DNA from: a virus
IMG/VR virus record: IMGVR_UViG_2929327430_000008
Coordinates: 3,805 to 67,804 of that record
Direction: 5' to 3' (one strand)
DNA: 64,000 bases
Part shown: positions 57,087 through 60,431 of the stretch, one piece after another
Layout of the letters: every line of letters begins with the position of its first letter
Numbering within the stretch: position 1 is the stretch's first letter
Notes under the pieces: generated by a model
What the model was told of the DNA's origin: nothing
The model's input: only the letters and a program-made list of their open reading frames with translations
Database searches by the model: none
Program-made: the position numbers and the translations under genes

Positions 57087-57425
57087 TTATTCGCGGTTTC
57101 CGACATAGGGCGAGGGCAAGGCGAACCAGAGACCGCCCGGATCGCAATCCGGCGATCCCGCCGCGAGCCATTCCTTCATGACGGCGTCGCGGATTTCTTC
57201 GTTGCTCTCGCCGTATTGCGGTTGATAGAGCCAGTCGTATTGCGTACCCCCGCCGCCGACTACGGGCTTGGCGCCATGCGCCAACAACTCGGCGACACAT
57301 CGGCTGACGAATTCGGTGAGATCGTCACCGGCCAATTCAAACCGACGTCGACCCGCAGGGGCAATTTGCCACAAGCCAACCGCGTCGATGGGCAGTTCGC
57401 AGGTAACAGCCTGGATGTATTCCAT
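57087..57425 (-). CDS. Orphan putative immunity protein
   Basis: GGAGGA then ATG at 57425; DAVGLWQI...LL..GAKPV...W......GGLWFALP. Confidence 0.6.
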   Translation of the reverse strand: MEYIQAVTCELPIDAVGLWQIAPAGRRRFELAGDDLTEFVSRCVAELLAHGAKPVVGGGGTQYDWLYQPQYGESNEEIRDAVMKEWLAAGSPDCDPGGLWFALPSPYVGNRE

Positions 57426-57683
57426 GACTGTTCCTCCATATTTACGATCCCTCTCCTGCAAGTTCAAACTCATCGTTGATGCACCTTGGATCCGGATTTT
57501 AAATTGTCGCTCTGAATAACGTCGATTGTTGGTCGATGCCTTTTGCTCGTTCGAATACCAAAAATCGTTCCGCCATTCCTACGAAACCAAACACGATTGT
57601 AGCCTCATGGCGACATATATGAATTATACCCATTTATAAATTTAATATTGCCGTATAATTTTAAATAAATTAAGAGAGATATT

Positions 57684-57983
57684 TTAACCGACGCGACCTT
57701 CAATTATAAATTTTTTCCCTTGCGCAAAAATATTATCGCCGCTTTGCATTTCTATTTTTAACAACTCGAATCCATCCTGCGGCTCGACCGCACATTTATT
57801 AACCGATACACTTCGACGCCAAGGAAAACAATGACTAAAAGACAACGAAGAAATACCGCACCCAACGATGAGAACTTTACGACTATCTTCGCTGACTGTT
57901 AAATTTGCTGTTAGCTGACCTATATTCCACTCCAATTCTATTTTATTCAAAGTCGCATCGTGTAGCGAAATTATAACACTCAT
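57684..57983 (-). CDS. Orphan putative immunity protein
   Basis: SLHDATL..IEL.W...FPW..SVSVN...KIEMQSGD; low GC. Confidence 0.6.
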   Translation of the reverse strand: MSVIISLHDATLNKIELEWNIGQLTANLTVSEDSRKVLIVGCGISSLSFSHCFPWRRSVSVNKCAVEPQDGFELLKIEMQSGDNIFAQGKKFIIEGRVG

Positions 57984-58106
57984 GGGCTCAATCCCCACCA
58001 ATTGGTAAATGTGCCCTCGGCGATTCGGGAAGGCCACCGCGCCGATTGTGATGAAACACCCTGTGGCGAAGTCACGCGGATGCAGATTTTGGTCGGACTC
58101 CGACAT

Positions 58107-58457
58107 TCATTCGCACGAGGTCTCGCGTCTCAGCAACTTAATGACGCCGGAGGGGGCATTCGTCAAAATTCTTGGAAGATCAGAAAACCTATTACTGCTT
58201 TTAAAATACATTATTATATTTACATATGGATATGCCTCTTCGAGAGGCTCATCATCATATGGATCAAGATTGATAACAATTTTTAAACTCTCCTCGCGCA
58301 TTCCTTCATAATATAAATACGTTCCACCACAGTAAAAACTACTAAACCTCTCCTCTAATACGACTGAAAGCAAACTTTCAATCAATTTTTTTGCTTCAAG
58401 AATGGAATGAGTTTCCACTCCGTAGAGTTCAACCGTCGACACTGTCCGACACCTCAT
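58107..58457 (-). CDS. Putative immunity protein for the orphan nucleotidyltransferase-like tip
   Basis: ATGA overlap with the toxin stop; low GC, acidic. Confidence 0.62.
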   Translation of the reverse strand: MRCRTVSTVELYGVETHSILEAKKLIESLLSVVLEERFSSFYCGGTYLYYEGMREESLKIVINLDPYDDEPLEEAYPYVNIIMYFKSSNRFSDLPRILTNAPSGVIKLLRRETSCE

Positions 58458-59134
58458 CGCGGTACGACGATACTCGGCGCGCGAGATATGGCCGTAGATG
58501 TTGAATTATATATCATAAAGTTTACAGGTCTGCCCGCCTGCCGGCTCGATTGCATCGATACGTTCGATAACCCAAGTTTTTCAAGCGCAGCCTCGTCCAA
58601 AGGTCCCGTGCGAGTGCCTGCGGAACGCAAGGCGATTCCGGCGTCTTGGGCCACCTGAAACAACTTGTCGCCTGCCAGGGCAATGTCAAAATCGCTGAGC
58701 CGCCCCGCATCGAATGCCGCGCCAGCACGGTAACTCATTCCTGTGACGGCGCTGCCCTGCATAATGCCTTGAGCATCAGCATATCCAGCTTCAGTCAACG
58801 CATCGTGAAGCGCGGAGCCGAACTGAGAGAACTCCCGCGCATTTGCAAATCCGTATGGAACGGCGGCCTCTGCCGCCGCAGGCGCCAGTAACGCCTCGCC
58901 TCCGAGCAAAGCCGCCGCGCCAGCCGCCCCAACGACAATCGGGTTGGTCACGATGGCGCGCCAGCGCGGGCGCGTTCCAACTTGTTCCCCCGTGTCCTGA
59001 TCGTATTCGGGCGCTGGCGCTTGCAGCCACTCACTGGCCGCATCGACCGCCGCCGACCACGGACCACGATTATCCGGTTTGTTCGCGTTCTCGCTTCCGT
59101 TTTGGTCGGCGTTTGCGGCTGCCGTGGCGAGCCG
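58454..59134 (-). pseudogene. Orphan toxin cassette with nucleotidyltransferase-like tip
   Basis: No start codon before the homology block. About 255 bp copy of the toxin gene middle, then PYGF...QGSAVTG...SDFDIAL (GS..DxD pattern). Confidence 0.75.
58878..59131. repeat. Direct repeat of about 59760-60013 (toxin linker homology block)
   Basis: Near-identical DNA encoding ADQNGSENANKPD.RGPWSAAVDA.SEWLQAP.PEYDQDTGEQVGTRPRWRAIVT.PIVVGAAGAAALLGGEALLAPAA. Confidence 0.93.
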
Positions 59135-59160
59135 TTATTTAGCAGCCCAACACGACATCA

Positions 59161-59412
59161 TTATCCGGCCAGTAAAAAGGCGGCCTTCGTACGCCGCTCT
59201 GCGGGAAGGGTTATTCCCATGTTCTCCTCGACGCCTTTCAAATATTCGGCAATCTCGCGACTTGTGTGGCCGGCGTTGACGAGGTTTAGTATCGTCGGCA
59301 AGTAAGCGTCATATTCGTCGGCTAAATTGGCGTTATCACCGACATCGAGCGGATCCCATTCTTGCAGCAAGATGTTTCTAACGTTCTCGATTTCCATAAG
59401 AAGCCTCTCCAA
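59161..59412 (-). CDS. Immunity-like protein (WDP..V....DEYD family)
   Basis: VRNILLQEWDPLDV....ADEYDAY..TI; directly after the toxin gene. Confidence 0.72.
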   Translation of the reverse strand: MERLLMEIENVRNILLQEWDPLDVGDNANLADEYDAYLPTILNLVNAGHTSREIAEYLKGVEENMGITLPAERRTKAAFLLAG

Positions 59413-59414
59413 AA

Positions 59415-60431
59415 TCAGGGACGAATTGCTCTGAGGATCCCGGTAACTTTCGGTCCAAATTTCGATGCAGGATAGGTGGTCATAACCCTGCCTGCGGGGT
59501 TCAAAACAACACCGGCCTCATTTGACAAATAAAGATATTGTCCAGCAGATTGCCGCAATACGATTAAAGGCTTATTCACCGTTACAAGAATATTTTGCGG
59601 CATAACTCCACGTGTAATGGCCTGATTAATTCCGTGTGTCGTGAAACCAGTAATTTCAAGCTCAGGTTTCCCTACCACCGTGCCAAGTTTACCGAAATTT
59701 TCACCGAGCAGTCCAGCCGAGTCACCAACAACGTCCGCTACTGGGCCAATTGCCGATGCGGCGGGAGCCAATAGAGCCTCGCCTCCAAGCAAAGCCGCCG
59801 CGCCAGCCGCTCCAACGACAATCGGGCTGGTCACGATGGCGCGCCAGCGCGGGCGCGTTCCAACTTGTTCCCCCGTGTCCTGATCGTATTCCGGAACAGG
59901 CGCTTGCAGCCACTCACTGACCGCATCGACCGCCGCCGACCACGGACCACGATGATCCGGTTTGTTCGCGTTCTCGCTTCCGTTTTGGTCGGCGCTTGCG
60001 CCCGTCGTGGCGAATCGGCCCTTCGGATCGCGCGGATGCAAGCTTTCATCCCAGTCGGCTTTGAATAGCTGGACGTTGGCGCCTTCGATCGCCGCCTCTT
60101 GCAGGATAAGCCAAGGCGAAACGCCCTTTGCGAGAAAGGTCGCGCCGATTTTCAGCATTTCGGCGTCGCGCGGGCCGCGCAAGGGCGGCAGGCCGAGTTG
60201 GACCAGACGGATGGCGGCGCCGGCGTTATCGCCCTGCGCAAGACTCTTGGCGACGCCGCGCAGGCCATGCAGGACGTTCTTGTGGATCGCCCTGCCCTGC
60301 ACCAGCGAGAGCAAAGCGAAAATCTCCGCTTCGCGGCCCGCGATGGCGAGTTCGGCGCCGCCGCCGGCGCGCAGCGTCATGGGCGCGAGGACGATGTCGC
60401 CAAGGACAAGGCCGGCCTCGGTGAGGCGCAC
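59415..60431 (-). CDS. Polymorphic toxin (WDESLHPRDPKGRF motif, hydrophobic linker, colicin-E5/BECR-like RNase tip)
   Basis: GC drops in the tip FTTHGINQAITRGV....L.TV..P...VVLNPAGRVMTTY; followed by an immunity-like gene and an orphan cassette. Confidence 0.72.
   Translation of the reverse strand: MRLTEAGLVLGDIVLAPMTLRAGGGAELAIAGREAEIFALLSLVQGRAIHKNVLHGLRGVAKSLAQGDNAGAAIRLVQLGLPPLRGPRDAEMLKIGATFLAKGVSPWLILQEAAIEGANVQLFKADWDESLHPRDPKGRFATTGASADQNGSENANKPDHRGPWSAAVDAVSEWLQAPVPEYDQDTGEQVGTRPRWRAIVTSPIVVGAAGAAALLGGEALLAPAASAIGPVADVVGDSAGLLGENFGKLGTVVGKPELEITGFTTHGINQAITRGVMPQNILVTVNKPLIVLRQSAGQYLYLSNEAGVVLNPAGRVMTTYPASKFGPKVTGILRAIRP

Follow-up and report, generated by a model that had tools for sequence, protein, structure and literature searches.

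A 64,000-nucleotide stretch of viral DNA (positions 3,805 to 67,804 of IMG/VR record IMGVR_UViG_2929327430_000008; hereafter the window) comes from a Rhodoblastus prophage and carries, on its minus strand between the large terminase gene terL and the portal gene, an array of toxin and putative immunity genes. We interpret this array as a polymorphic toxin-immunity system in the late (structural) operon of a siphovirus-like prophage, in which a carrier domain would load the toxin into the procapsid and the C-terminal tip would be delivered with the DNA. Taken as a whole, we hold this interpretation at about even confidence. That the toxin is swappable is supported by comparison of strains and homologues, and we infer capsid loading of the carrier protein from the company that its junction motif keeps. 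The hallmarks of polymorphic toxin systems (Zhang et al. 2012) found here are a shared N-terminal part with unrelated C-terminal toxins, start-less orphan cassettes, and a small immunity gene directly after each tip, the last by position only.

The order of genes on the minus strand is cI-like repressor (62624-63361), terS, terL (60472-61815), array and portal (55558-57003). TerL (447 amino acids, aa) matches the Pfam families Terminase_6N (2e-22) and Terminase_6C (1.8e-19), and the portal (481 aa, ending in a TAG stop) matches Phage_portal (PF04860, 8.7e-17). Read from a GTG at 60431, the toxin gene (59415-60431) encodes 338 aa. It begins with a carrier N-domain of about 127 aa (aa 1-126 from the GTG; 60054-60431), which belongs to no named family, followed by the junction motif WDESLHPRDPKGRF (aa 127-140; 60012-60053), the Rhodoblastus form of K(Y/F)xPxQPR(V/D)..G..W(T). 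A constant linker of 85 aa (aa 141-225; 59758-60013) ends in a hydrophobic helix, IVVGAAGAAALLGGEALLAPAA (aa 204-225; 59757-59822), with a Kyte-Doolittle mean of 1.87 over 19 residues, computed on the identical segment of homologue P0002. The remaining 113 residues constitute tip 1 (aa 226-338; 59415-59756). The guanine-plus-cytosine (GC) content of tip 1 is 0.475, versus 0.667 for the N-domain; the N-domain, WDESLHPRDPKGRF and the linker all have phage-like GC. Directly after tip 1 lies its putative immunity gene (59161-59412), for which the likelier start is an ATG at 59397 behind a GGAGAGG ribosome-binding site, giving a product of 78 aa.

Next in the array is an orphan cassette (58454-59134), in which a second copy of the linker (58875-59130) is joined to a different tip, tip 2 (58454-58873). 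The orphan frame opens right after a TAA (59135-59137) and runs for 226 codons to 58454; its first 61 codons contain no ATG, GTG or TTG, and the earliest GTG is at 58951. The two linker copies, 58875-59130 and 59758-60013, constitute a direct repeat of 256 nucleotides (nt) with 93% identity, a match that rules out chance. The ATG of the putative tip 2 immunity gene (58107-58457; 116 aa, GC 0.39) overlaps the TGA stop of the orphan, and a 140-aa open reading frame (ORF; 57684-58106) begins one codon past the 116-aa stop. An AT-rich spacer of 210 bp (57474-57683; GC 0.36) then precedes a 128-aa gene (57087-57473) that adjoins the portal in all relatives. Promoter-like sites lie upstream of this gene: of 7 matches in 56900-60600, 4 fall wholly inside 57496-57710 and a fifth just upstream, at 57732-57761. 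These sites are consensus matches only, and shuffles gave a mean of 2.7. The original prediction, made from the letters of the window, had placed between terL and portal a toxin gene with WDESLHPRDPKGRF, a hydrophobic helix and a low-GC tip, an immunity-like gene, and a start-less linker copy of about 255 bp on a different tip, and all of these are present. It had also listed three more small immunity-like genes; the three ORFs exist, and the 140-aa one proves to be a junction remnant plus an immunity-like fold.

Comparison between strains reveals how the array was assembled. The repeat copy runs exactly from the end of the junction motif (R-F/L-A-T) to the last residue of the hydrophobic helix. 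Given these bounds, the constant linker is the recombination handle, with the tip beginning at residue 226. Four Rhodoblastus genomes share the order cI, terS, terL, carrier, variable part, 128-aa gene and portal, between the same host genes (ppdK, yjbQ and argK at one end and hisC at the other). In Rhodoblastus acidophilus DSM 137 (locus L002) the carrier is fused straight to tip 2, which is followed by the 116-, 140- and 128-aa genes; tip 2 is the expressed C-terminus both there and in homologue P0004. Tip 1 and its immunity gene are both missing from L002 and from sequencing run X3, in which a contig from another strain of the same organism joins 59037 to 59921. The 883 bp skipped by this contig is exactly the distance separating the two repeat copies. 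Together, the sister strains with tip 2 on the carrier and the exact 883-bp skip argue for cassette displacement, as in contact-dependent inhibition (CDI) and Rhs loci, and the displacement steps of the array are established by sequence comparison. In CDI and Rhs loci, tips are swapped by recombination at the constant region just upstream, and the displaced start-less orphans keep their immunity genes.

The distal end of the array retains further cassette remains. The 140-aa ORF opens, in codons 1-16, with a third junction (NLHPRD-FATG) that has decayed and lost 12 nt relative to the intact one, and the DNA pattern TGCATCCGCGYGA..TTCGCCAC has two sites in the window, the intact and the decayed junction, with no matches in 100 shuffles. 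Residues from about 42 to 140 of this ORF resemble stand-alone proteins of 91-99 aa among Atlas structural matches (template-modelling score 0.83-0.87 by matched cluster and 0.59-0.61 by query), with faint Imm50 and YxiG labels. We take the ORF to be a cassette that has lost its tip by deletion. The 128-aa gene is present in L001-L004, and in L003, a locus with its own linker-plus-tip orphan, it stands directly after a 'MSDIL..PNGEPVGY' tip twice; for this reason it is most likely the orphan immunity gene of that tip family. L003 holds four diverged copies of it in one array (L003:9095-12231), 68-81% identical to that of the window. The ratio of non-synonymous to synonymous substitution rates (dN/dS) of the 128-aa gene, 0.05-0.23, denotes purifying selection. 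The array comprises one live tip, one intact orphan, one decayed junction with an immunity-like gene, and one further orphan immunity gene.

Homologues of tip 1, at 56-59% identity, form the C-termini of proteins named in their source as RHS repeat-associated, one of them with PF05593, which makes tip 1 a probable shared polymorphic-toxin tip. Support for the label 'RNase-like', originally given to tip 1, is limited to a sub-threshold match of homologue P0006 to DUF4258, a BECR-type RNase family (PF14076; E 0.0014, 19.3 bits, cut-off 25), and tip 1 of the window itself gives no match to this family at E<=10. Tip 2 contains QGSAVTG and SDFD 21 residues apart, a GS...DxD signature that would suit a Pol-beta-type nucleotidyltransferase. 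It has no match in Pfam at E<=10 and none better than E 1.4 in a sequence search of the PDB; queries of PDB sequences with either tip or with the N-domain profile returned chance matches only (ribosomal uL14, RuvB, designed TIM barrels). A further motif-bearing ORF, in L067, has a C-terminus with 40% identity to tip 2, and the 116-aa gene also comes after tip 2 in L002 and L013. The gene following tip 1 has no family match in Pfam, PHROG or NCBIfam. The immunity genes are assigned to tips 1 and 2 by position and are putative.

To survey the carrier family, five Rhodoblastus-type N-domains were combined into a profile and compared with 1.84 billion representatives, which returned 549 matches at E<=1e-3, 141 at E<=1e-10 and 12 at E<=1e-30; the best 150 of the 549 are 107-585 aa long. 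In 18 close homologues the N-domain and motif are conserved, followed by two types of linker and by unrelated C-termini, one of which is Colicin_E5 (1.1e-28). A Pfam scan of 107 wider members matched 16 families, 14 of them C-terminal toxin or hydrolase domains, with zero matches over the N-domain itself. These include Ntox44 (4 members), Phage_lysozyme (3), Pesticin (3), Glucosaminidase (3), Gln_amidase (2) and Lipase_3 (2), as well as RNAse_A_bac, Ribonuclease, M23, CHAP and Tox-REase-5, among others. The C-termini behind the N-domain span nucleases, RNases, deamidases, lysozymes and lipases. In structural comparisons with the Atlas, residues 1-127 resemble the N-termini of clusters that carry Tox-REase-5, EC869-like CDI toxin or AHH domains. 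The differing C-termini of the 18 homologues, tip 2 on the carrier elsewhere and the 883-bp skip bear out the swappable toxin of the original prediction.

These C-termini also bear on a reading in which the toxin never leaves the cell that makes it. An intracellular toxin-antitoxin or exclusion module, whose pairs stabilise the prophage or abort superinfection, would agree with the tight toxin-immunity adjacency and overlapping stop and start codons, and with the retention of orphan immunity genes under the purifying selection noted for the 128-aa gene. However, start-less orphan arrays, a constant carrier and tips shared with RHS proteins mark exported polymorphic toxins, and tips that degrade the cell wall would be senseless inside the producer. 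We therefore consider an intracellular role very unlikely.

The N-domain itself has no family match in Pfam, PHROG or NCBIfam. An AlphaFold2 (AF2) model built on a 117-row alignment is confident (predicted local distance difference test, pLDDT, 90.9; predicted template-modelling score 0.79) and consists of four beta strands followed by six helices; the AF2 model of the full-length toxin was poor (pLDDT 52.7) and was left out of the fold search. Foldseek with the N-domain model found nothing at E<=0.001 in the PDB or BFVD, and an exhaustive VIA-align comparison over 48,161 chains gave a best Z-score of 3.8. The predicted fold has no relative in view, and a missing match is no proof of a new fold. 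The MuF families PF04233 and PF06152 gave no match at E<=0.1 in the toxin protein or at E<=0.001 in the 107 members, and neither the provirus record nor two Rhodoblastus genomes gave a match to PF04233. Jamet et al. define MuF3 and MuF4 profiles as well; judged on the two Pfam families, the N-domain is probably not MuF. The early view of an N-terminus unlike MuF and without a name holds for the two MuF families and for the three family libraries searched.

The N-domain family is rare in sampled reference genomes. Profile A2 matched 2 of 401 genomes in the class sample, and profile A6 matched 1 of 401 in the phylum sample and 2 of 401 in the order sample, one of the order matches being to the motif only; this scoring took at most about 10 candidates per genome and shows rarity there, not absence. 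Among 50,697 isolate phage records, a tblastn search with the junction peptide gave 6 weak, irrelevant matches, and one with the distant member P0060 gave none.

The junction motif is sharply conserved and is found behind other carriers. While the window has the form HPRDxxGRF, most relatives have K-Y-x-P-x-QPR-V-PAG..GG-W-T. Residues H132, P133, R134, D135, G138 and F140 are invariant across the 18 homologues, and nearly all aligned wider members have K(Y/F)xPxQPRVPAG..(S/G)G.W(T) or QPRDxxGRW right behind the N-domain. The portal of L002 (L002:10336-12294) continues via KYSDDQPRDDRGRWSNGG (QPRDDxGRW) into a Gln_amidase-type papain-fold toxin, and that of L003 (L003:12328-14049) via KFEPDQPRDDQGRWTATG (QPRDDxGRW) into a Cys-rich tip. 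In the window, the TAG of the portal is followed in the same frame by HNQRHDERGRFATAD (junction-like, HDERGRF) and a Cys-rich tip. A displaced 3' fragment of the portal gene (54291-54632, 95-99% identical to 55644-55983) stands ahead of a Gln_amidase tip (53586-54011; PF15644, papain-fold toxin 1; E 8.3e-7, 30.5 bits, above the gathering threshold of 24.1). The portal gene itself is a predicted polymorphic-toxin carrier. At the end of this portal array (52356-53589) are two related immunity-like genes of 238 and 126 aa with a common core, ...PGK.REYPFGW.FF..., and a 71-nt repeat of 73% identity (52521-52591 and 53368-53438).

Among contigs selected by the motif, 14 of 25 unique full-length portals carry it after the portal domain, and of 17 ORFs with a partial portal domain, 14 open with a C-terminal portal fragment and are orphan-like. 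A full prohead protease (Peptidase_S78 in Pfam; L067:1553-3208) is followed by the motif and a 280-aa extension, and downstream of it an orphan (L067:3621-4718) joins a C-terminal protease fragment (Peptidase_S78) to the motif and an RNAse_A_bac tip. In 48 ORFs the same motif stands behind a second carrier, about 85 aa long (…PRILSAVP.TLH..LEIAKAIRTLA…) and again of no named family; this carrier is followed by QPRVPAGNPDGGQW and variable tips, often in tandem arrays. It lies directly after terL in L064, L072, L073 and L087-L089, and after a capsid-like gene in L044-L051.

Portal and prohead protease are built into the procapsid. Because the motif also serves these two components, head loading is favoured for the N-domain protein, and the motif may mark the point of attachment or of cleavage. 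It is conceivable, though on balance doubtful, that the motif is a general cargo tag in HK97-like phages of Alphaproteobacteria: any procapsid-internal carrier (portal, prohead protease, the 127-aa N-domain or the 85-aa carrier) would bear an exchangeable toxin, which the maturation protease would free there and which would be injected with the DNA.

The positions of N-domain genes also bear on where the protein acts. A motif-based scan of IMG/VR gave 149 confirmed stretches, of which 76 loci were kept, and their ORFs were labelled with hidden Markov models and with seeds from the window and the kept loci. Together with the genome loci, this survey holds 46 N-domain genes in 37 loci. Structural genes are present in 36 of the 37, and all 112 labelled ORFs share the strand of the N-domain gene. 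Between terL and portal lie 6 of the 46 genes, between capsid-like gene and portal 8, between protease-like and capsid-like genes 7, and between an 825-aa tail protein and NlpC 8; the rest are cut by contig ends or lie elsewhere. The original prediction had proposed that homologues would bear variable toxin C-termini and adjoin terminase or portal genes; the first holds, and the second is mixed. One 337-aa homologue of the N-domain protein (G401; L011:9506-10519) has the variant junction DDPKHPGWPAGTVGGRGGKF and is surrounded by host genes; ppdK is upstream of it, and small HEAT-like ORFs follow.

Two further explanations draw on these positions. In one, the protein is tail-borne: the N-domain docks to the tail tip or lumen, and the toxic tip, in the manner of virion-associated lysins, works on the envelope or is taken in at adsorption. 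Eleven of the 46 N-domain genes come after the 825-aa tail protein, 8 of them before NlpC/P60, several others adjoin host-specificity genes, and cell-wall hydrolase tips exist. Against this, the gene is in the head module in Rhodoblastus and in several other contigs, the portal and prohead protease that share its motif are head-internal, and nuclease and RNase tips need the cytoplasm. A tail role is, in our view, quite unlikely.

In the other, the protein is a bacteriocin encoded by a late-operon moron, freed at host lysis and able to enter cells by itself, with the N-domain serving in receptor binding or translocation. The spread of N-domain cassettes over many slots of structural operons is moron-like, one copy stands alone among host genes, and tips that act in the periplasm (lysozyme, glucosaminidase, M23, CHAP, lipase) are common. 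However, the motif also serves fusions to portal and prohead protease, which become part of the procapsid and could not act as free bacteriocins. The proteins are also short (the lengths of the best 150 of 549 given above), and the overlap of the toxin gene start with the terL stop in relatives fits a stoichiometric component of the particle. We consider release as a bacteriocin unlikely.

Several observations weigh against head loading and delivery with the DNA, the reading that we prefer. Placement of the N-domain protein in the virion is a prediction from gene sequence and context. The position of its gene is unfixed (6 of 46 between terL and portal, 11 of 46 after the 825-aa protein in tail modules), and the G401 copy has no terL, portal or other phage genes within 9 kb. 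Cell-wall hydrolases and lipases, equally suited to a tail-borne or secreted role, are numerous among the tips, and the hydrophobic segment after the motif is strong in only 18 of 94 members. The survey loci were picked from viral contigs by the motif, which biases the counts of phage context and of portals, and they include duplicates (L012/L003, L013/L002, L020-22, L028/L038). In the window strain the late operon is split between its adaptor genes by an element of about 27 kb. Damaged copies of the toxin gene are also frequent: the tip is truncated in L001, the N-terminus of L002 has a deletion, the linker of L004 is frameshifted, a stop codon lies in frame in L005, and the leader is frameshifted in the window.

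The leader of the window gene can be reconstructed from its relatives, in which the toxin gene starts at an ATG overlapping the TGA stop of terL (ATGA). The window keeps this ATG (60473-60475) out of frame with the body of the gene, owing to a 1-nt deletion that appears as a one-column gap against L001, L003 and L004; the ancestral leader (60432-60475) was traced by translation, DNA alignment and metagenome contigs. Metagenome runs X2 and X9, with the same tip 1, have one extra G after 60456. Either translation begins at the GTG at 60431 in the window, or the gene is silent in this strain. Across species, the N-domain has a dN/dS of 0.20-0.37, and terL and portal have 0.09-0.16, indicating purifying selection, and the divergence of terL, portal and N-domain tracks that of the flanking host genes. 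Because of the leader frameshift and the splitting of the prophage by another element, the system is probably impaired in the window strain, where the immunity genes are what may still be in use.

The remainder of the late operon extends beyond the portal array. A hisC-like aminotransferase gene (PF00155; 51176-52318) lies on the plus strand between the portal array and a head-maturation-protease-like gene (50175-51161). An oppositely oriented hisC is found inside the head module in all four genomes (the window, L002, L003 and L004); it is either a host gene embedded in an old, vertically inherited prophage or a phage auxiliary gene. Beyond the protease-like gene come a capsid-position gene (48633-50162; 509 aa, phrog_13692, of unknown function) and a head-tail adaptor gene (48060-48434). 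The insert of about 27 kb (about 20700-48026) follows, between this and a second head-tail adaptor gene, with a tyrosine integrase gene at 46815-48026. It also encodes an AAA_25/HTH protein, a D5_N primase, a helicase and, within a protein of 1228 aa, a cell-wall hydrolase domain, and is probably a second mobile element inside the late operon. Past it are the second adaptor, a tape-measure-like gene, tail proteins, NlpC/P60 and a tail fibre.

With a cI-like repressor, terS, terL, portal, protease-like, capsid-position, adaptor and tail genes, the element has the gene set of a temperate phage. Its description as a 9-kb remnant without capsid genes was wrong; this had rested on PF05065 alone, and the protease-like, capsid-position, adaptor and tail genes lie beyond hisC and the insert. 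A gene transfer agent, suggested by a likeness of the tail genes to clusters of that type, was set aside, as a prophage accounts for the cI-like repressor and the full set of packaging genes. A separate small element of R. acidophilus DSM 137, at G001:C47:232000-251900 (L008), contains an integrase, a portal-sized gene, a protease-capsid fusion (PF05065), terS and terL, a layout that resembles a capsid-forming satellite.

In the mechanism that we propose, the unit is a four-part gene (carrier N-domain, junction motif, constant linker with a membrane-like helix, and exchangeable tip) with its putative cognate immunity gene next to it. New tip-immunity modules come in by recombination in the constant linker, and an incoming module moves the former tip downstream, where it is kept as a start-less orphan with its immunity gene. 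The carrier domain would put the protein inside the procapsid, with the junction motif as the cargo attachment point and perhaps the site of a releasing cut. At infection the tip would exit with the DNA and harm cells without the matching immunity gene, in parallel with the proposal for MuF.

MuF toxins (Jamet et al. 2017, PMC5576092; Zhang et al. 2012, PMC3482391) are prophage-encoded proteins of the packaging and head region, with a constant N-terminal part proposed for capsid targeting, variable C-terminal toxins and small downstream immunity ORFs; their virion delivery is still a hypothesis. The array shares with them the prophage setting, the head region, the variable tips, the immunity ORFs and the hypothesised capsid targeting. 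It differs in its carrier, which in the Rhodoblastus type is about 127 aa long, lacks a detectable MuF domain and has an unmatched fold. While muf genes directly follow the portal gene (Jamet et al. 2017, PMC5576092), the Rhodoblastus gene (window, L001-L004) lies upstream of it, between terL and portal, with varying positions elsewhere. The N-domain family also differs in its sharp junction motif and displaced orphan cassettes; the text of Jamet et al. 2017 (PMC5576092) makes no mention of orphans or of a junction motif.

The exchange mechanism, the orphans and the short boundary peptide are as in CDI (CdiA-CT) and Rhs loci, and tip 1 itself is found on RHS-repeat proteins. In those systems the peptides at the carrier-tip boundary are VENN in CdiA and PxxxxDPxGL in Rhs. 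Unlike them, the array has no filamentous haemagglutinin or RHS repeats and no nearby type V or type VI secretion system genes, and its carrier is in a phage late operon. For the portal extensions, Iyer et al. 2017 (PMC5512222) described enzymatic domains on the portal C-terminus, for which they proposed packaging and injection. The portals of L002 and L003, from the same prophage type, resemble these in carrying a Gln_amidase-like or Cys-rich tip, whereas the array toxin is a separate small carrier protein and not the portal. The portal fusions here are also polymorphic, with orphans opening with a 3' portal fragment, which is absent from the description in the accessible text of Iyer et al. 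(PMC5512222). The literature covered, mostly at the level of abstracts, contains nothing on the N-domain, on the junction motif, or on polymorphic arrays behind portal or prohead protease.

The array adds to the phage-borne polymorphic toxins, which to our knowledge have so far been known through one carrier, MuF. It brings a second carrier domain, without a structural match and present at the head of hundreds of protein clusters, together with a sharp junction motif common to portal and prohead-protease toxin fusions, and a clear case of strain-to-strain cassette displacement. The domain, the motif and the tip-immunity pairs are defined reagents for a testable model of how phages load and exchange protein weapons, and many late-operon prophage genes now annotated as 'hypothetical' are flagged as toxin-immunity loci. 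If the cargo-tag reading of the motif were true, interbacterial toxins would be delivered by capsids in modular fashion through at least four interchangeable carriers, and the motif would offer a handle for loading chosen proteins into phage heads.

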